Positions 22,352 to 35,912 of a stretch of DNA of 64,000 nt are shown piece after piece (the stretch's first letter is position 1; every line of letters starts with the position of its first letter). Made by a program: the position numbers and the translations under genes. The stretch lies in assembly GCF_001677475.2 (NCBI RefSeq), contig NZ_CP015229.1, one strand, 5' to 3'. The notes under the pieces are model-generated. The model searched no databases. It saw only the letters and a program-made list of their open reading frames with translations, and was not told where the DNA came from. This DNA is from Escherichia coli (GTDB lineage: Bacteria > Pseudomonadota > Gammaproteobacteria > Enterobacterales > Enterobacteriaceae).

Positions 22352-22475
22352 ATTTACTCCTTTCTAACATCACCAGGAAAAGTATAACGAATTGAAAATA
22401 CATTGTTTATAAAAACAGCAGGCGCGCGGTAATGGCTGGATTGCGACACGGAGTTACTTTATAATCCGCTACCAT

Positions 22476-22551
22476 GGCCCCTTAGCTCAGTGGTTAGAGC
22501 AGGCGACTCATAATCGCTTGGTCGCTGGTTCAAGTCCAGCAGGGGCCACCA
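22476..22551 (+). tRNA. ileX: tRNA-Ile (anticodon CAU, lysidine-modified)
   Basis: 76-nt sequence ggccccttagctcagtggttagagcaggcgactCATaatcgc...gggccacca folds as a canonical cloverleaf with CAT anticodon and encoded CCA; its 3' 46 nt are repeated at 36093-36141. Confidence 0.92.
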
Positions 22552-23641: not shown

Positions 23642-23652
23642 AGTGCGCTACG

Positions 23653-23973
23653 TTACTTGTCTTTATTCGGCTGCAACTTATCCGGCACATTTCCGGTAGT
23701 TTCCATCAGGTAATCAGCCAGTATCTGTGGGAGGTTGTCGGCAACTCTGGCACTGGCATTACAGGCTTTAACCACTTCCCTTTTAAGCCCATCCAGCATA
23801 GCGGGGGTAATGTGTGGGAAGCTCCTTTGCATAGTAAGCGGGAGGCTGTCCATGATTGATGAAATCTGACTCGCCAGTTTTGAAAGCGCGTACATGCAAA
23901 ACTCTGTATCAATCACGTCACCGCGATCGCGCTCGTTTTTAAGTTCCTGCGCCTCCGCCTGTGCTGTCAGTAA
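23653..23973 (-). pseudogene. Small terminase subunit (lambda Nu1-like), C-terminal fragment separated from its N-terminus by the IS insertion
   Basis: Translation ...AQAEAQELKNERDRGDVIDTEFCMYALSKLASQISSIMDSLPLTMQRSFP... parallels lambda Nu1 C-terminal region (...AQADAQELKNARD...ETAFCTFVLSRIAGEIASILDGLPLSVQRRFP...) from memory. Confidence 0.7.
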
Positions 23974-24085
23974 TCTGATCCTGACTCGTAAGTATGAGAC
24001 GACAATAACTCAGTCCGCCTGGCGCCGATTATTCTGGCCGGTTTTGTAACCTGAGTGTCATTTACATGATCCAACAGGAAATGGC

Positions 24086-25465
24086 GTGACGCTCAATACT
24101 TCTCAGGTCAGTTACTATATGACTCAGCGTAAGAAAGGTATAACTCAGCATATCTCGGCCATGAAGGCTGGTATCTCAGTCCGTTCTGGTCGTCGGATCG
24201 AAAAAGGAGAGTGGGCAAAAAACAGTGTTCGGCACTGGCGCACACGCAAAGATCCTCTGGAAGCTGTGTGGGACAGCATGCTTGTTCCTCTGTTGAAAGA
24301 GAGGCCGGCTCTGACACCAACAACTCTACTGGAGATGCTACAGGATAAATATCCCGGCCAGTACCCCAACAGCCTTCGAAGAACAATGCAACGGCGGGTT
24401 CGCGAATGGAAACTACAGTATGGTACAGAGCAGGAGGTCATGTTCCGCCAGCAACATCAGCCCGGCCTGCGAGGCCTGTCGGACTTTACTGAACTGAAAG
24501 GTGTAGTTGTCACCATCGCCGGTAAGTTGTTGGCGCATAAGTTGTATCACTTCCGTCTGGAATGGAGCCACTGGAGCTGGATGCGGGTTGTTCTGGGTGG
24601 TGAGAGCTTCTCTGCTCTGGCTGAAGGCCTGCAGGAAGCCCTCGGACAACTGGGCGGAGTGCCGGTAGAACATAAAACGGACAGCCTGAGGGCAGCATGG
24701 AAACAACAGGGCGAAGATGGACGCCGCGAGCTGACTGAGCGTTATGCTACTCTCTGTCAGCACTACGGAATGCAGGGCGTACACAATAATGCCGGTCGGG
24801 GCCACGAAAATGGCTCGGTTGAAAGTGCCCACGGACATCTGAAAAGGCGTATCTGTCAGGCGCTGATACTGCGGGGCAGTAACGACTTCAGCACCATAGA
24901 AGAATATCAGGCCTTCATCACTCAGCAGGTTATGCGGCACAACCGTAACAATCAGGATCTGGTCAAGGAAGAACGTCTTCATCTGAAACCGCTGCCGCTT
25001 CGTCGCAGTGCTGACTATGATGAGCTGACTGTGAGGGTTAGTCGCAGCAGTACCATCAATGTGAAGCACGTCGTCTACAGCGTACCTTCCCGGCTTGTAG
25101 GTCAACTGTTACGGGTCAGGTTATGGGACGATCGTCTGAGCTGTTACGTTGGCAGCAGCGAGGTCATGAGCTGCCCTCGCGTCAGACCAGAAAAAGGGAA
25201 GACGCGGGCCCGTCGTATCGACTTCCGACATGTGATCGACAGTCTGGCAAAAAAGCCCGGTGCGTTCTGCCATGCAACGCTGAGAAATGACATCCTGCCG
25301 GACGATGAATGGCGGAGGCTGTGGCGTCGCTTATGTAATCATCTGGAGCCCGATATGGCAGGAAGGCTGATGGTACATGCCGGGAAACGTGGATCTGCAC
25401 CGGCTGATGCGCTTCCTGGGTATAAAAGAAAAGGCGTTGCCGGTAGTCAATGTGATACAGCATAA
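24086..25465 (+). CDS. istA: IS21-family transposase IstA
   Basis: 459-aa ORF (GTG start) with N-terminal HTH and DDE-type catalytic region; sits immediately upstream of an IstB-like gene. Confidence 0.8.
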   Translation: MTLNTSQVSYYMTQRKKGITQHISAMKAGISVRSGRRIEKGEWAKNSVRHWRTRKDPLEAVWDSMLVPLLKERPALTPTTLLEMLQDKYPGQYPNSLRRTMQRRVREWKLQYGTEQEVMFRQQHQPGLRGLSDFTELKGVVVTIAGKLLAHKLYHFRLEWSHWSWMRVVLGGESFSALAEGLQEALGQLGGVPVEHKTDSLRAAWKQQGEDGRRELTERYATLCQHYGMQGVHNNAGRGHENGSVESAHGHLKRRICQALILRGSNDFSTIEEYQAFITQQVMRHNRNNQDLVKEERLHLKPLPLRRSADYDELTVRVSRSSTINVKHVVYSVPSRLVGQLLRVRLWDDRLSCYVGSSEVMSCPRVRPEKGKTRARRIDFRHVIDSLAKKPGAFCHATLRNDILPDDEWRRLWRRLCNHLEPDMAGRLMVHAGKRGSAPADALPGYKRKGVAGSQCDTA

Positions 25466-25510
25466 CCTGAGCAGTTATGAGCAACTACTGCGTGGCAAGG
25501 GAGGTTCGCA

Positions 25511-26266
25511 GTGAGCAATATCCATCACCTTGAACATAGCCTGCGTAAACTACGCCTGACACGAGTTGGAGCTGAATGGCACGCTCTGGAAAAACGAGCG
25601 CTGGCAGAAGGCTGGACACCATCGCGCTATCTTCTGACGCTATGCAATGAAGAACTCCTGTGGCGCGAGAGTGAAAAACTGCGTCGTTATAAAAAGGAGG
25701 CCCGGTTGCCAGTTGCCAAAACGCTGAGCGAATACGACTTCAGTCAGGTGCCGGAACTGAATGGAGCTCAGTTCCGGCAACTCTGTGAAACGACAGACTG
25801 GGTTGATGCAGGAGAAAACGTTCTGCTGTTCGGAGCCAGCGGGTTGGGGAAAAGCCATCTGGCGGCAGCGATCGTGGATGGCGTAGTAGGTCAGGGCTAC
25901 CGGGCCCGGTTCTACAGCGCAGGAGAGCTGTTGCAGGAACTACGTAAAGCCAGAGCTCAGTTGAAACTGAATGAGCTGCTACTGAAACTGGATCGCTACC
26001 GGGTGATAGTGGTGGATGATCTTGGCTATGTCAAACGCGATAGTGCCGAAACGGGTGTGCTGTTCGAGTTAATAGCGCATCGCTATGAACGTGGGAGCCT
26101 GGTGATAACCAGTAACCATCCGTTCAGCATGTGGGGCAGCATCTTCGTGGATGAGACTATGGCGGTGGCTGCGGCAGACAGGCTGATCCATCACGGATAT
26201 ATGTTCGAACTGAAAGGGGAAAGCTACAGGAAAAAGACAGCGAAGGCAGTAACAAGCGCGACTTGA
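25511..26266 (+). CDS. istB: IS21-family helper ATPase IstB
   Basis: 251-aa ORF with Walker A (GASGLGKSHLA) and Walker B (VIVVDDLGY) motifs; RBS gggagg upstream of GTG start. Confidence 0.85.
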   Translation: MSNIHHLEHSLRKLRLTRVGAEWHALEKRALAEGWTPSRYLLTLCNEELLWRESEKLRRYKKEARLPVAKTLSEYDFSQVPELNGAQFRQLCETTDWVDAGENVLLFGASGLGKSHLAAAIVDGVVGQGYRARFYSAGELLQELRKARAQLKLNELLLKLDRYRVIVVDDLGYVKRDSAETGVLFELIAHRYERGSLVITSNHPFSMWGSIFVDETMAVAAADRLIHHGYMFELKGESYRKKTAKAVTSAT

Positions 26267-26325
26267 TGTCGCCCTGAAGGGTGCGGCCAGTATAGTTGGC
26301 GCGAGTCGGCAAAACTAGTTGACGT

Positions 26326-26526
26326 CTAATATCGTAAGAGTTCATCATCATCAATCTCGCCTTTGTCGTTTGTAAGCTGGCTAATTGCATTGTTAACCCT
26401 ATTGTCTATCACGCTGGCAACATCATAAAACGCCTCACGGCCTTTACGTTCAACGGGAGTCACTCCCCACTTGTCGAATGCTGTAGCACTTACCCGGCAG
26501 CTTTGCGCCATGGTTTTTTTGTTCAT
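26326..26526 (-). pseudogene. Small terminase subunit (lambda Nu1-like), N-terminal fragment truncated at the IS boundary
   Basis: MNKKTMAQSCRVSATAFDKWGVTPVERKGREAFYDVASVIDN... parallels lambda Nu1 N-terminus (MEVNKKQLADIFGASIRTIQNWQEQGMPV...); ORF ends exactly at the IS junction. Confidence 0.7.
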
Positions 26527-26639
26527 CAGGTGCGATTTCATCAATATCCCAACTTGGTCAAGGTTTCAGGTTGGTGTGTTGGTGTTATCTTTCCCTTTTT
26601 ATTCATGGAGATAGAGCAAACAACAAAACCACCACCACC

Positions 26640-26745
26640 CCCCTGAAAAAGCTCATAAATAGCGAAAAACCGCGAGGTCGCCGCCCCGTAACGGGTCCAT
26701 ATGCCGGAAAGGACCCGTAAAAAAAGCCGGATTTCTCCGGCCTTG
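26640..26745 (-). other. Lambda-type cos site (cosN with flanking terminase-binding region)
   Basis: Minus strand reads ACGGGTCCTTTCCGG...CGTTACG-GGGCGGCGACCT-CGCGGTTTTTCGCTATTTATGA, nearly identical to the phage lambda cohesive-end region as I recall it (GGGCGGCGACCTCGCGGGTTTTCGCTATTTATGAAAA); lies ~150 nt upstream of the Nu1-like start. Confidence 0.75.
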
Positions 26746-26747
26746 TC

Positions 26748-27161
26748 TCAGATGGTTTTCAGTATGCGATCGATGTCGCCATCATCGCCCGGGTTTCTGC
26801 CAGCGTATGCCATACCAGCTGATACGGCTTTCGGGCTGTGCATGTCCATAAAGTTTTCAAAGGCTGCGGTAAGCTCTGGTGCAACCTTCTGGCGTTCCTG
26901 CTCTATGGTCATGCTAAGGATGCTTTTAGCCGTACCAACATCGATACAAGGCACGTTTGCCATTGCACGTAACAGCGGCTGATAGTCGCCAGATTCATCA
27001 AGCGCCATAATCGCATCAGAGCGCGGCTTGTCCTTCTCTTCCAGGCTGTTAAGTTGATATACGGCCTCGTAGGTTGATAAACCTCTGTCAGCCATTGCCC
27101 GCGCTTCGGCCTTAAATTTACTCGCCAGCGGTAGCGTCATGATGCTTTCATTCGTTGCCAT
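26748..27161 (-). CDS. Hypothetical protein (137 aa) between decoration-like gene and cos
   Basis: ORF with no motif I recognise; co-oriented with capsid genes. Confidence 0.55.
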   Translation of the reverse strand: MATNESIMTLPLASKFKAEARAMADRGLSTYEAVYQLNSLEEKDKPRSDAIMALDESGDYQPLLRAMANVPCIDVGTAKSILSMTIEQERQKVAPELTAAFENFMDMHSPKAVSAGMAYAGRNPGDDGDIDRILKTI

Positions 27162-27173
27162 CGTTCCCTCTGC

Positions 27174-27509
27174 TTATCGGGCCAGTGGCTGAACGGATAC
27201 GCCAGAACCCGCAAAGGCGGCGCATTTTTTCGCATCGGTGTCGACGCTCTCAGGCCAGTTAACGGCGGCGATATTAAATATCCCCGTCTTATAGCACTGT
27301 GCTGATTTCTGCGTCGACGTGTCAACGGGGTACGAGGTCAGATAAACAGCCTTGCCAGATTCCTGACCATCCCACGGCTTAAACTCGCCATTTTCCGCCA
27401 GCATCAGCGGGGTAAATTCCTGAATAACTCCAGCATCAGCGGCAAAATGTACCAGCGTCGTGGATACCTGCTGACTGCCTGCAAATAACTCAATGTATGG
27501 AGTGTTCAT
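27174..27509 (-). CDS. Head decoration protein (lambda gpD-like)
   Basis: 111-aa ORF, size and position next to an E-like capsid gene match lambda D (110 aa); assignment by context and size, weak sequence recall. Confidence 0.6.
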   Translation of the reverse strand: MNTPYIELFAGSQQVSTTLVHFAADAGVIQEFTPLMLAENGEFKPWDGQESGKAVYLTSYPVDTSTQKSAQCYKTGIFNIAAVNWPESVDTDAKKCAAFAGSGVSVQPLAR

Positions 27510-27520
27510 AGAATCCCCCG

Positions 27521-28576
27521 TTAAGCAATTTTGACGGTAACAAATTTGCGAATATCTGCCGGTACCGGCTGCGGTGCGCTGTGCGTCTGCACGTACTCAA
27601 TCGCCGGATCGCCATCCTCAATCCAGTTTTTCGGGTAGTACATGTTTTGCGTTGCGCCAGTTCTTACCGCTTCCGGATCCATAATCGCACCATAGGCCAC
27701 CAGCCCTTTATTGTTAGTGTTGCCCAGGACAAGCAAATCAGGCTCAAGGAAATATTTTTCGGTGCCATCGCTGTCGGTGTATTTGCCGGAATAGACGATA
27801 AGGGCCAGATCACCCAGATAGCCTTTAAAGCTCACCACTTCGCCCAGGTTTTTACAGGCCAGCTCTGCGGCGGATTCTGAACCACGGGAAAGATCGTACA
27901 GTTCACGGAATTTTTTAAAGCTGCGTAACGTGCGCCATACCTCAGCGCCCATAATCATGACGTTGGCGGGGCAACCAGCCTGATCGGTGTATAGTTCGAT
28001 GTCATAGATTGGATCGTGTGTTTCCTTATCTGCCTCAGACCACTTTTTGCCCGATCCCTGCGTAATGATGTTTTTAGTCGGGATTTTCCAGTCGATTTCG
28101 TATCTATTTATTCCTTCGCCCTCAATGATGTTTTTTCCGGTCGTGACCGCATTCACCGCCAGCCATTCTATGCGAGCTTTAATAGCGTTTACCTGGCGGC
28201 GCATGTTGCCAGTAATCAGGCGCATACGGCGATAAGTTGGATCGTTAAGCTGTGCCGGATCTTCTCCAGCCATGCGCATGATGGTTTTTGATGGATCGAT
28301 TTCGTGTTTTGGTTTCATATAGCCAGGGCGGATAGTGCTTGTTTCGTACCCTTTATCGCGCTGAACCTGACTCCCCACCATAGGCGAACAAAAAGCCGAC
28401 ATGGTGACTTCTTCAATATCCAGGGTATCTAACATGATGTCCTGCGTGTTGAAGGTTGCCACGTTCGGGAAAAACAGCGACGTAAACAGCGGACTGAATT
28501 TAAATTCCGAAATATCCCCACGATTCAGGTACGCGAAAAGCTGGTTAGTGTTAAGTGCCGTTGCTTTGCCTGTCAT
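27521..28576 (-). CDS. Major capsid protein (lambda gpE-like)
   Basis: 351-aa ORF aligning along its length with lambda E from memory: FKFSPLFTSLFF / FKFDPLFLRLFF, PGYMKPKHEIDP / PGYVKPKHEVNP, YSGKY...LVLGNTNN...YPKNW / YSGQY...MVLGNTQA...YPKNW. Confidence 0.8.
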   Translation of the reverse strand: MTGKATALNTNQLFAYLNRGDISEFKFSPLFTSLFFPNVATFNTQDIMLDTLDIEEVTMSAFCSPMVGSQVQRDKGYETSTIRPGYMKPKHEIDPSKTIMRMAGEDPAQLNDPTYRRMRLITGNMRRQVNAIKARIEWLAVNAVTTGKNIIEGEGINRYEIDWKIPTKNIITQGSGKKWSEADKETHDPIYDIELYTDQAGCPANVMIMGAEVWRTLRSFKKFRELYDLSRGSESAAELACKNLGEVVSFKGYLGDLALIVYSGKYTDSDGTEKYFLEPDLLVLGNTNNKGLVAYGAIMDPEAVRTGATQNMYYPKNWIEDGDPAIEYVQTHSAPQPVPADIRKFVTVKIA

Positions 28577-28815
28577 TATTCACCCCCATGAGTCTGATTC
28601 ATGCCCAGCGCCGCGCGTAAATAGGCGCGTACCTGCCAGCCTGTTGACGGCTCAACCATCGCCAGCGGCTCAAGTCCTGCCGCAATGCCTGCTTTTACGT
28701 TCTGCTGGTGGCGTTCCTTGAGCGCCTCCACGATGTCTGGGCTTATGTAAACTGTCACCCCGCCTTTTTTCTCTTCTGCCATAGTCGGAAATTCCTCTTT
28801 GACGTTAAAAATCAC
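28576..28815 (-). CDS. Hypothetical small protein translationally coupled to the capsid gene
   Basis: 79-aa ORF (possibly starting at internal MAEEKK); stop shares one base with the capsid ATG. Confidence 0.5.
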   Translation of the reverse strand: MIFNVKEEFPTMAEEKKGGVTVYISPDIVEALKERHQQNVKAGIAAGLEPLAMVEPSTGWQVRAYLRAALGMNQTHGGE

Positions 28816-28846
28816 AACTGGATGTTCATCCAGTTGTGATTATAAT
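28811..28846. promoter_or_regulatory. Perfect 14-bp inverted repeat plus TATAAT box upstream of the capsid operon
   Basis: atcacaactggatg-tt-catccagttgtgat immediately followed by tataat; read directly. Confidence 0.45.
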
Positions 28847-28951
28847 CATGATTTCATTTTACGCAATAATGTTGAGTTGTGTTGCAAATTGTGAAATGAT
28901 TTCCGGCAACAGTAGTCACCATACTGTTAGATAAAAGCCTCATATGCAAAA

Positions 28952-29028
28952 GCCCGATAAGACCCTCTGACCTTATCGGGCTTTTTTTGGGGCATAAAAA
29001 AGCCGGACTTCTCCGGCTTCTGTTACTC
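28952..29028. terminator. Pair of intrinsic terminator hairpins between the SSB gene and the capsid operon
   Basis: gcccgataag...cttatcgggc followed by T-run; and gccggacttctccggc flanked by A-run / T-run (functional on minus strand). Confidence 0.55.
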
Positions 29029-29742: not shown

Positions 29743-29971
29743 CCTTCACCTGTTCACCTTTTGATATTTTCCATTTAAATTCATACTGTTAAGGGGTGAA
29801 CAGTTTCACAAAAACTATTCACCAACTGTTCACCACTGTTCACCCTTGAAGCTCAATAAACAACCAAAAAGGTGAACAGTGAATAGTTTGGTGAATAGTT
29901 CATAAATAACTGTTCACCCTATAATATACTGATATAAAAGATATTTATGACAGGGTGAACAGTGGTGAACA
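29743..29971. repeat. Iteron array (P4 ori/crr-type TGTTCACC octamers)
   Basis: Perfect TGTTCACC at 29751, 29827, 29837, 29911 and its complement GGTGAACA at 29795, 29871, 29954, 29964, plus degenerate copies (tattcacc, ggtgaata), within ~230 bp immediately 3' of the primase gene. Confidence 0.8.
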
Positions 29972-32717: not shown

Positions 32718-32763
32718 ATGTACGTACGTAATATTGATGATAATAGGAGTTACGTACGTACAT
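32718..32763. promoter_or_regulatory. Twin palindromic operator (two copies of TACGTACGTA, 30 bp apart) in a divergent promoter region
   Basis: atgtacgtacgtaat at 32718-32732 and gttacgtacgtacat at 32749-32763; second copy overlaps the start codon of the RHH-like gene. Confidence 0.55.
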
Positions 32764-33429: not shown

Positions 33430-33648
33430 TTACACCGTCTGCGTTCTGCGAGTGGATGCAAGATAAGCATCGAGATCAGTGCGCATATACAGCACTTTGC
33501 GCCCCAGCTTATGGAAAGGGATTTTTACCTTGCCAGTACAGGCCCAGTTCGCCAGCGTTTGATTGTTAACGCCAAGGTAGGCAGCAGCTTCAGCACGTGT
33601 AAGGCGGTCAGTTGATAAATCAGATTTCTTTAAATTCATATCTATCAC
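33430..33648 (-). CDS. alpA: AlpA/excisionase-family HTH regulator
   Basis: 72-aa ORF with LTRAEAAAYLGVNNQTLANWACTGKVKIPFHKLGRKVLY (MerR-like HTH_17 pattern). Confidence 0.75.
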   Translation of the reverse strand: MIDMNLKKSDLSTDRLTRAEAAAYLGVNNQTLANWACTGKVKIPFHKLGRKVLYMRTDLDAYLASTRRTQTV

Positions 33649-33709
33649 CGTGTACTTCTAAGTAACAACGGTGATAAATATCAATCAATGGGTATTTTGT
33701 TTTTAGCCC

Positions 33710-33786: not shown

Positions 33787-34507
33787 GGGGGTGAACAAGT
33801 TCAAACGAAGAATATTTATCAGGTCTTGGTGGTTGTGCTCCTGATTCTTTAATCCATTTATCCAGAGTGTTTTTACTTACTTTCCCATGATAGTAAACAG
33901 AAAGCTCGTTCAATAAACCTGTTTTACTGGCTTTAGGGTACTTTTCCCATGTTAGTTTAATTACGTGCATAACTTCATTGTAATAATGATTTCTTGGTTT
34001 GCGCGCTTTTTCTTTCTGTGATAAGGATAAAGCATCTTTTATTTTTTTATCTTTTTCATGGTTCGATATAATTTCTTCAAAAAAGTCATTAAGCAATAAC
34101 TCAACACCAACCCTAGTAAGTTTGTCTGCGTGATTACGCATTCCGACATGGTACAATGCAACTGCTGAATTTAAAGTATCGACAACCTGACAAGATAGTT
34201 TACTATCAAATATTAAAAAACCACATGAATCCATTCTTATAGCTAATTCAATAGGATATTGCTCGATTTCTCTTAATTCTAAACCATAACACAAAAGAAA
34301 TTCTCTTGTTGGATACTTTGATTTATAAAAATAATCTCTTATATCATCAATCAAGCGTTTTATAGCCTCTATGGTGGAGTTTTTCGGGGATAAAGATACA
34401 GGAACGTTTAAAACTGAAGAGTCTCGCCCACCAGTAATTAAATCATTCATAACCGAATAAATAATATATTGTTTGACCGATATATTGTTATCACCCATAT
34501 ATGTCAT
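33782..34507 (-). CDS. AT-rich orphan protein (241 aa) in the integrase-proximal cargo position
   Basis: Long ORF with visibly lower GC than the rest of the island; overlaps the int stop; no motif I can recognise. Confidence 0.6.
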   Translation of the reverse strand: MTYMGDNNISVKQYIIYSVMNDLITGGRDSSVLNVPVSLSPKNSTIEAIKRLIDDIRDYFYKSKYPTREFLLCYGLELREIEQYPIELAIRMDSCGFLIFDSKLSCQVVDTLNSAVALYHVGMRNHADKLTRVGVELLLNDFFEEIISNHEKDKKIKDALSLSQKEKARKPRNHYYNEVMHVIKLTWEKYPKASKTGLLNELSVYYHGKVSKNTLDKWIKESGAQPPRPDKYSSFELVHPQ

Positions 34508-35912
34508 TCTTTTCTTGTACTATAGCAAATAGTAAACGACGTTTTTCATCATCACTCATGCCCTCCAGTGCGGAAAGTAATTGCGCATCGATAGATTTTT
34601 TACTCTCCACCAGCCCGGCATGTTCCAGAATTGCCCGTTCTATCCGTGATGCTGGCTCCAGCAGTTCATCAGCACCGAAATGTAAATACCCCTGCGTTAC
34701 GTCGGCACTTCGCATAGTGCGGTGATTCATCAGGCGCTTGAGGATGTAATTACCCACGCCCACCAGCTCAGCAACCGTTCCGAACGTCCGGCGTGCGTCG
34801 TGCCACTTAAACGGGACAGGGAAGAGCATTTCATCGTTCGCCTCAGGAATGGTAGCCGCGCTTATCCGGTCTATGATGTGCCGTGTCTCCTGAATCACTC
34901 CCTTCACGCCAGGAAACACCAGCACATCATCAGCAGCTTTGTTTTTTAGCCTGCGAAGAAACATTTTCCGCAACGTATCAGTGATCGGCAGTTCAAGCGG
35001 ATCCCCGTTTTTCGTGGTGTCTATCCAGAAAAAGCGACCGCCCATATTCACGCGATCCCACGTAAGGCCAAAAACTTCTGATTTCCTCAGTCCGGTAAAC
35101 AGTGCCATTTCCACGGCATCACATACCGTAACAGCTATATCATCCCTTTCCTGTTCGCCCTGGTCGCGCACAGCAGCTACAGCAGCAAACCAGCGGGGAA
35201 AATCATGCAGGCGGATACGTTCCGTTTTTCTTACCGTTCCGTGCCACTGGCGCTTGGTGCTCAGTACCAGAGTCGGCGGATCCGGTAAAAGAGTATTACC
35301 CGCATCATCACGGTAATGATCATGCGCAAACCGACACACAGCACGTAGCGCACGCGCCCATAAATCGGCCTGTGCCTTGCTTCCTGTACCAACCCCAGCC
35401 CGTAACGTGGTTTTATCAGCACCGAACCATACAGCCCCATCAGTGATGGCCTTATGCCGTTGTTCCACCCGTTCGCGGGAAATACTGGCGAGGGTATGGG
35501 CCATCCAGTCACCGGAATAATTCTGTAATATGCTGCGGTACTGTTTTTCTGTGGAGGGTTTCAGGCGGTGGCCACGATTTTTTACGTAGGCGTCAATCGC
35601 CTCACTCAGCGTTATCATGGCCTTGTTGTTAGTGCGCTTTGCTATGTTCGGATTTATCCCCGTTGTGGCGACTTCGCCAAGGAGTTCCATAGCTTTAGCC
35701 CTGGCATTATCCACGCTCAGATCAGGAAAACGCCCCAGCGTTGCACGAATAAATTTTCCGTTACGCTTACGGGAAATGCAGAAACTTTTCACACCAGACG
35801 AACCTACACGGACACGCAGCCCGTTAACCTCCGTATCACCATATTCGACCTGTCCATGTTCCGGCGTTGGCAGTTCTGCAATTTTTACTTTAGAGAATCT
35901 GAATAATTTCAC
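34491..35912 (-). CDS. int: Tyrosine site-specific integrase
   Basis: 473-aa ORF from a GTG start; catalytic signature region (LRKSE..., WHDARRTFGT, ...QGYLHF) with an N-terminal arm-binding-like domain. Confidence 0.85.
   Translation of the reverse strand: MKLFRFSKVKIAELPTPEHGQVEYGDTEVNGLRVRVGSSGVKSFCISRKRNGKFIRATLGRFPDLSVDNARAKAMELLGEVATTGINPNIAKRTNNKAMITLSEAIDAYVKNRGHRLKPSTEKQYRSILQNYSGDWMAHTLASISRERVEQRHKAITDGAVWFGADKTTLRAGVGTGSKAQADLWARALRAVCRFAHDHYRDDAGNTLLPDPPTLVLSTKRQWHGTVRKTERIRLHDFPRWFAAVAAVRDQGEQERDDIAVTVCDAVEMALFTGLRKSEVFGLTWDRVNMGGRFFWIDTTKNGDPLELPITDTLRKMFLRRLKNKAADDVLVFPGVKGVIQETRHIIDRISAATIPEANDEMLFPVPFKWHDARRTFGTVAELVGVGNYILKRLMNHRTMRSADVTQGYLHFGADELLEPASRIERAILEHAGLVESKKSIDAQLLSALEGMSDDEKRRLLFAIVQEKNDIYG

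Follow-up and report, generated by a model that had tools for sequence, protein, structure and literature searches.

A LexA-box-like palindrome at the predicted promoter of the capsid operon of an Escherichia coli phage satellite

What acts at a long, perfect palindrome just upstream of the capsid genes of a phage satellite? The window, by which we mean the whole 64-kb stretch of E. coli chromosome analyzed here, carries an EcCICFT073-type phage satellite (PICI) that spans from a tRNA-Ile gene (22476-22548) to an integrase gene (34491-35912), and within it such a palindrome had been noted and taken as a likely operator for a repressor or a late activator of capsid gene expression. We consider it likely that the core of this palindrome is a host LexA operator (SOS box), which would make the hyp68/capsid/decoration operon SOS inducible. 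What can be read directly from the DNA is the sequence match, the pattern of conservation, and the geometry of the site relative to a conserved predicted promoter.

Assignment of the island to the PICIs is based on the presence of an integrase, an AlpA-type HTH, a primase-helicase, and a packaging/capsid module within an island of about 11 to 13 kb beside a tRNA gene; the Pfam matches found within it are Phage_integrase, HTH_17, D5_N/Pox_D5, SSB, Phage_cap_E, HDPD, and Phage_Nu1. The genes of interest are the following:

28576 to 28782, minus strand: hyp68, the first gene of the operon (68 amino acids, phrog_3255), its stop overlapping the start of the capsid gene
27521 to 28576, minus strand: homolog of the lambda gpE-like major capsid protein (351 amino acids; Pfam Phage_cap_E, 3e-52; PHROG 29)
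27174 to 27509, minus strand: homolog of the lambda gpD-like head decoration protein (111 amino acids; Pfam HDPD, 5e-18), counterpart of c1500
26748 to 27161, minus strand: hyp137 (phrog_1999), with a weak match to the C-terminal part of a head maturation protease/scaffold
28792 to 28799, minus strand: ribosome-binding site of the operon's first gene, AAGAGGAA, recognized in the sequence and invariant in the alignment

The palindrome does lie upstream of these genes, as had been stated, and the genes are on the minus strand, but the first of them, originally called hyp79, is likelier a 68-amino-acid protein that starts at the ATG at 28782, because the strong ribosome-binding site (28799 to 28792) precedes this codon and because the gene is annotated so in relatives. 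The operon probably extends to the downstream cos and the Nu1-like terS. In the prototype island, EcCICFT073 (CFT073, NC_004431.1), the order is PerC, hyp68, capsid, decoration, and so on, next to phoQ; the 351-amino-acid gpE-like protein is the counterpart of c1499 in the CFT073 annotation. The genes c1499 and c1500 are described as capsid and head decoration homologs, respectively, and their deletion gave no phenotype (PMC6092414). A literature search by the CFT073 locus tags c1497 to c1500 returned the PICI paper alone and no expression data.

Two differences among the islands can be recorded here. In many relatives (L003, L005, L008, L011-L013, L094, and L165), EcCICFT073 among them, a gene for a PerC-family regulator directly precedes the promoter, and the window's island has no PerC gene between ssb and the capsid operon promoter. 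Farther downstream, an IS21-family element (23993-26331, with istA at 24086-25465 and istB at 25511-26266, both on the plus strand) splits the Nu1-like small-terminase (Rpp/TerS-like) gene into halves at 26332-26541 and 23652-23992 (minus strand); this gene is intact in the 99.5%-identical island of strain TUM1886. Judging from the sequence, the window's copy of the satellite is probably packaging defective.

The palindrome itself was borne out as described, a perfect 14-bp inverted repeat with a tt center and no mismatch, and its arms in fact extend to 15 nucleotides:

28810 to 28841, unstranded: 15+2+15 palindrome, AATCACAACTGGATG-tt-CATCCAGTTGTGATT, from the sequence and a repeat search
28811 to 28840: the 14+2+14 form, ATCACAACTGGATG (28811-28824), tt (28825-28826), and CATCCAGTTGTGAT (28827-28840), without mismatch
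28816 to 28835, unstranded: LexA-box-like 20-mer, AACTGGATGTTCATCCAGTT, the top match of the position weight matrix (PWM) in the window

In the repeat search of the window, the two 15-nucleotide arms (28810-28824 and 28827-28841) were 100% complementary, and this was the longest perfect close inverted repeat within the 64 kb. By simple arithmetic, a perfect 14-nucleotide arm pair at one fixed spacing is expected 64000/4^14, or about 2.4e-4, times per 64 kb, so the palindrome is not a product of chance. The half-site occurs once in the window, with no further copies beyond chance. Rfam gave no family at the palindrome or the promoter region, and only subthreshold chance matches nearby.

The inner part of the palindrome resembles a known site. 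The core, AACTGGATGTTCATCCAGTT, has CTG at 28818-28820 and CAG at 28831-28833, and CTG-N10-CAG is the invariant frame of E. coli LexA boxes (PMC11228462). Scoring was done with a symmetrized PWM derived from a published set of 18 LexA boxes of E. coli (PMC3009722, Table 4), with the proven sites scored leave-one-out. The core reaches 20.5 bits (heterology index, about 7.0 to 7.4), level with recA (20.8) and sulA (20.4) and above cho (19.5), lexA (19.4), ruvA (18.5), uvrD (16.2), dinB (13.6), dinG, and polB. The proven boxes span 6.7 to 28.3 bits on this scale, and the island variants and orthologs span 16.3 to 21.7. Dropping three CTGG/TTGG sites from the matrix still left the core at 19.5 bits. 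It is the best match to the LexA matrix in the whole window, with P = 7.7e-8 per position from the exact score distribution and 0.005 matches of this score expected by chance per 64 kb. Even given a random 9+2+9 palindrome, such a score has P = 1.2e-4. The core combines the CTG-N10-CAG frame, a match to the consensus within the proven range, and a position predicted to block a promoter. The second-best match in the window (18.8 bits; CATTGTTTATAAAAACAGCA, 22401-22420), in which TTG replaces CTG, sits on the chromosomal side of the island junction, flanked by mug and the tRNA-Ile gene.

Where the site lies relative to a promoter depends on which strand is read. The elements in and around the promoter region are as follows:

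28841 to 28846, plus strand: the TATAAT of the original prediction, directly after the 14-nucleotide right arm, mirror of the minus-strand -10 (from the sequence)
28839 to 28844, minus strand: predicted -10 TATAAT of the capsid operon promoter (P2), within TGATTATAATCA (from the sequence)
28861 to 28866, minus strand: predicted -35 TTGCGT, 16 bp upstream of the minus-strand TATAAT (from the sequence)
28851 to 28867, minus strand: degenerate copy (ATTGCG-TAAAA-TGAAAT) of an inverted repeat, TTGCA-N5..7-TGCAA, over the -35 and spacer
28948 to 28985, unstranded: hairpin terminator separating the ssb unit from the promoter region, with tails T7 (plus strand) and T4 (minus strand)
28998 to 29022, minus strand: first terminator hairpin past ssb, with a T6 tail on the minus strand (from the sequence)

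The TATAAT said to abut the palindrome is indeed present on the plus strand, but there it faces away from the hyp68/E-like/D-like genes, because these are on the minus strand. Since TGATTATAATCA (28838-28849) is its own reverse complement, TATAAT is present on the minus strand as well, from 28844 to 28839 and with a 2-bp overlap with the palindrome, and it is this copy that is relevant to the capsid operon. The minus-strand -10 is invariant in the E. coli relatives and retained in Salmonella and Pluralibacter, and the promoter as a whole, TTGCnn-16-TATAAT, is conserved in all three. Its -35 is weak; an automatic promoter scan missed TTGCGT-16-TATAAT because the -35 matches at only 3 of 6 bases. 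Transcription from this promoter should start at about 28831-28835, as predicted from its position, and the box, which begins 3 bp past the minus-strand TATAAT, would then occupy about -3 to +17. The scan did report a second candidate promoter upstream (P1), TTCACA-18-CATTAT, roughly conserved in E. coli and Salmonella; a start from there would place the LexA-like box at about +25 to +45.

Other identities for this sequence were considered and set aside. On inspection, a TCACA..TGTGA that recalls a CRP site has the wrong orientation and spacing and is seen only in the window's variant, and TGAT-N4-ATCA over the -10 resembles an FNR core, a resemblance that the palindromic TATAAT accounts for. 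Neither a replication origin nor cos falls at the palindrome: origin-type repeats lie at about 29750-29837 and cos at about 26641-26722. In the former region, CTGTTCACC/GGTGAACAG repeats, both inverted and direct, cluster immediately 3′ of the primase-helicase gene, and PICI replication origins have been reported 3′ of that gene (PMC6092414).

Of the two kinds of regulator originally proposed, the position and the match to boxes such as those of recA and sulA favor a repressor; a late activator fits poorly, because the site follows the -10 and covers the predicted start, a position at which repressors act. Boxes that overlap the start site are typical of tightly LexA-controlled genes (PMC8072944). 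We see host LexA as the best candidate for the binding protein, ahead of any helper or late factor. From these observations we infer that LexA binds and represses, that the operon is SOS inducible, where transcription starts, and how far the operon extends. We imagine that, as long as the cell is undamaged, a LexA dimer bound to the box would keep an otherwise strong promoter from initiating; upon DNA damage, activated RecA would promote LexA self-cleavage and the operon would be turned on. The signal releasing the operon would be the same one that induces lambdoid helper prophages.

A palindrome of this length could also act as RNA. Transcripts arriving from P1, or by readthrough from ssb, might fold it on the sense strand and stop at the U-run that follows, an attenuator or terminator whose readthrough would require a helper or island antiterminator; alternatively, the hairpin might serve as a 5′ stabilizer. 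The palindrome in the operon sense folds at -20.8 kcal/mol (z of -5.6), followed by a U-run, and P1 provides a candidate source for such transcripts, being roughly conserved in E. coli and Salmonella. Over 16 haplotypes, 92% of cells are paired, and three pairs have changed on both sides. The hairpin covariation score was reached by only 6 of 500 shuffles, a result that, by the tool's own caveat, lies within the range for related sequences without structure. Yet pair 5/26 is mismatched in half of the haplotypes, and sense and antisense pair equally well. The stem base beside the U-run is AU rich, and after the full 15-bp stem the run has only 3 U's in the window, with T5 to T7 in relatives. 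In Salmonella and Pluralibacter only a 7-bp stem is left, and in Salmonella the U-run is 7 nucleotides from it. Compensatory maintenance of the hairpin was not found in the orthologs, covariation in E. coli being weak and the long stem being lost in the other two genera. A transcript from the TATAAT promoter, moreover, would include only the inner 5 to 7 bp (-1 to -8 kcal/mol, z of about 0), and the chance that a random hairpin would also be a good LexA box is about 1e-4. The box-less lineage described below has the T-run and no hairpin; the run is therefore a feature of the leader rather than a terminator tail. The likeness to Rho-independent terminators and leader attenuators is a stable sense-strand hairpin followed by a T-run, and the differences are the AU-rich stem base, a long stem that is not conserved across genera, and a T-run without a hairpin in the sister lineage. 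Taken together, we regard the RNA reading as unlikely.

We return to the LexA operator and to what the relatives tell about it. The promoter region is present in 600 of 5426 complete E. coli genomes, or about 11%, and our comparison drew on 12 chromosomal copies and 80 IMG/VR contigs, yielding 90 tabulated sites. CTG and CAG are invariant across about 90 related islands and are also present in Salmonella and Pluralibacter. Immediately left of the box, six different triplets occur among the tabulated sites (TAA, GAG, GGA, GAT, CAA, and GAA; a seventh, TGA, came from one contig with apparent sequencing indels that was excluded from the table), and the right flank is likewise variable. Within the box, the variants in E. 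coli are CTGGATA, which is neutral, a flipped center, and a change of CCAG to ACAG; the last of these breaks the palindrome and raises the LexA score to 21.7 bits, nearer the consensus. In the flipped case (the IMG/VR contig L072), the center reads CTGGATGTTCATCCAG in the operon orientation, compared with GAAC in all other relatives, a difference that fits an inversion or template switching inside the palindrome. EcCICFT073 has the same box, ATCATAACTGGATGAACATCCAGTTATGAT after GATTATA, upstream of the gene preceding c1499.

The outer arms behave differently from the box. Among the E. coli sites, the arms are complementary at 11 to 14 of 14 positions, about half of the haplotypes having mismatches, and the perfect 30-bp form is shared by the window's lineage and the commonest one, to which CFT073 belongs. 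From these sequences, the conserved unit is the inner 16- to 20-bp core, not the 30-bp palindrome; the symmetry that extends it to 30 to 32 bp is lineage specific and probably not the functional unit. There are features for which LexA offers no explanation: the outer ATCA/TGAT flanks keep their symmetry in almost every E. coli variant, and a few of the flank variants look compensated (GGA/TCC, GAG/TTC, CAA/TTG, and TAA/TTA). One can envision that the perfection over 30 to 32 bp has no dedicated function and is a mutational by-product, arising by quasi-palindrome correction around a shorter functional core. Quasi-palindrome correction by intrastrand template switching yields multibase compensated jumps, and such jumps are seen, e.g., TTA to TCC opposite GGA, as is a center changed from GAAC to GTTC in one relative; the outer arms are a mix of perfect, one-mismatch, and two-mismatch forms. 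This would account for the outer arms but not for the conserved core, and so it complements the LexA operator; as the explanation of the locus it is very unlikely.

Within E. coli, the region from -60 to +60 is conserved throughout, and conservation of the core there does not rise much above background. Because the whole promoter region is so conserved, the strongest comparative argument comes from two extra genera and one box-less lineage. A protein search with hyp68 found contigs of Salmonella and Pluralibacter gergoviae, the only two extra lineages, with homologs of 60 to 66% identity. The Salmonella sequence reads TATAAT-CAGGA-CTGGATAAATATCCAG-ATTAGA, with noncomplementary flanks and a LexA score of 18.3 bits. 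In Pluralibacter the site is AACTGGATGTTTGTCCAGTT, about 11 bp farther downstream of the -10, and it scores 17.9 bits with the inner ATG/CAT symmetry lost. Both orthologs retain the LexA core only; the outer arms are gone. Retention of the core in different genera suggests a factor common to the hosts, not a phage-specific immunity repressor. Scans of species-representative genome contigs with the capsid protein and with the hyp68 alignment returned no relatives. The phage collection contained no phage with this promoter, similarity being confined to the cos site (phage 21-like).

A sister lineage (IMG/VR contigs L155-L161 and L164), whose first gene is 60 to 65% identical, has neither box nor hairpin. 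Its -10, TAAAAT, is weaker, and the T-rich leader and the TTGCA..TGCAA repeat are retained. The absence of the box beside the weaker -10 is consistent with strong promoters being the ones that need a repressor site. In a third type of island (L013), homology to the promoter runs as far as TATAAT and is followed by different cargo without a box; this break in homology directly after TATAAT marks the end of the promoter module.

The same comparison bears on whether a dimeric regulator other than LexA might use the site. A long perfect palindrome over the start site is classic operator architecture, and the symmetric ATCA/TGAT flanks reach beyond the 20-bp LexA box. Candidates would be hyp68 acting on its own operon, the products of the 241- and 334-amino-acid ORFs, the PerC-like protein, or a repressor or Cro-like protein of the helper phage. 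As the first downstream gene, and one with no assigned function, hyp68 is a natural suspect, but no DNA-binding fold was detected in it: there was no Pfam match, and the AlphaFold model (a beta-hairpin plus helices, pLDDT 74.6) gave no PDB fold match better than E = 6, so that the idea of a ribbon-helix-helix autoregulator was not supported. PerC is missing from this island and from many relatives that have the box. Phage immunity repressors are highly specific, whereas the core persists in three genera despite changed flanks, center, and position. The single occurrence of the half-site in the window also speaks against such a regulator, and for any such protein the LexA match would be a coincidence at the 1e-4 level. 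We therefore judge another dimeric regulator improbable.

That leaves the question of how a LexA operator would fit with what is known of satellite induction. In EcCICFT073, induction of alpA is reported to depend on the helper and not on SOS (PMC6092414). This is compatible with LexA control here, because the box would govern the late module only. During helper infection without SOS, the operon would stay repressed unless there is another input, and the conserved TTGCA..TGCAA repeat hints at one. This repeat is degenerate in the window; most relatives have a perfect copy (ATTGCAcAAAATGCAAT), as do Pluralibacter (TTGCATTAAATGCAA) and the box-less lineage (L002-L012, L097, and L155-L161 are included); to judge by its sequence, it may be a site for an activator, a second repressor, or another regulator. 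A third TGCAA lies about 21 bp farther upstream.

Two further inverted repeats were seen elsewhere in the island. At 33634-33685, ATCACCGT-N16-ACGGTGAT lies directly upstream of alpA (33636 to 33430, minus strand), the gene for the satellite's master activator, its right arm overlapping the alpA Shine-Dalgarno and start region; it may sequester the ribosome-binding site or act as an operator. At 32718-32763, a perfect 14-nucleotide inverted repeat, ATGTACGTACGTAA-N18-TTACGTACGTACAT, occupies the divergent intergenic region between an Icd-like gene and a small plus-strand ORF and is a candidate operator of the island's regulatory region.

The plus-strand TATAAT could be the -10 of a divergent plus-strand promoter, although a divergent transcript is speculative. 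In a more elaborate scheme, which we hold to be quite unlikely, the palindromic -10 (TGATTATAATCA) would fire both ways and a single LexA dimer would gate both directions, sitting at +1 of the capsid operon and over the -35 of a divergent noncoding transcript of about 135 nucleotides, while the long palindrome might attenuate sense transcripts from upstream. The divergent transcript would end at the hairpin with the plus-strand T7 tail (28948-28985). On that strand the tail is T7 to T8 in Pluralibacter and the E. coli relatives, and in Salmonella it is shorter and interrupted. A plus-strand RNA from 28853 to 28990 is possible, with a fold of -41.5 kcal/mol (z of -4.1); the fold is stable, but there was no Rfam match and no convincing covariation.

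The papers on EcCICFT073, EcCIMP1, the helper-embedded PICI, and cf-PICIs do not mention LexA control, save in citing work on SaPIs, and LexA control of the capsid operon of a Gram-negative PICI has apparently not been described before. If the LexA operator is real, excision and replication would await a cue from the helper phage, while the capsid/packaging module would hear the host SOS signal directly. It would also offer a regulatory handle on genes of the c1499/c1500 type, for which deletion gave no phenotype (PMC6092414), and the E. coli SOS regulon would gain an operon of a mobile element carried by about 11% of complete genomes (600/5426). Because the prototype island has the same box, LexA control can be addressed in the CFT073/lambda/phi80 system.

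Among the known E. coli boxes, those of ruvAB (CGCTGGATATCTATCCAGCA) and cho (CACTGGATAGATAACCAGCA) are close parallels: like the core, they have a CTGG-N8-CCAG frame, an AT-rich center, and a position in the promoter core, and the core's PWM score is at least as high as theirs. It differs from them in lying in a mobile element rather than at a repair gene, in being set within a longer perfect palindrome, and in its GAAC center, which is less AT rich than the consensus; LexA binding at the island core is a prediction. Other mobile elements of E. coli also have LexA-controlled promoters, including the colicin operons, phage 186 tum, and the Gifsy antirepressors. In these, a LexA box positioned at the -10 or immediately past it keeps a strong promoter for a potentially costly function silent, as is proposed here. 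Colicin promoters typically carry two overlapping boxes, and the island has one; the genes here are, in contrast to those systems, structural protein homologs.

A further comparison is with the SaPIs, in which operon I, a packaging/capsid-remodeling module, is LexA controlled (Ubeda et al. 2007, as cited in PMC5052747). The likeness is that both are satellites of the PICI class in which a morphogenesis/packaging module has its own promoter and a site for host LexA, a predicted one in the island, so that the module would respond to the same signal as helper prophages do on induction. The two are not homologous in sequence: operon I has the Firmicute LexA motif and encodes cpmAB/terS, compared with the gpE-, gpD-, and Nu1-like proteins here. 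LexA control is, by the same citation, experimentally shown for the SaPIs and is predicted for the island. The likeness is functional only and would be convergence, not common descent; if LexA does act here, the EcCICFT073 family of PICIs and the SaPIs have arrived independently at the same wiring.
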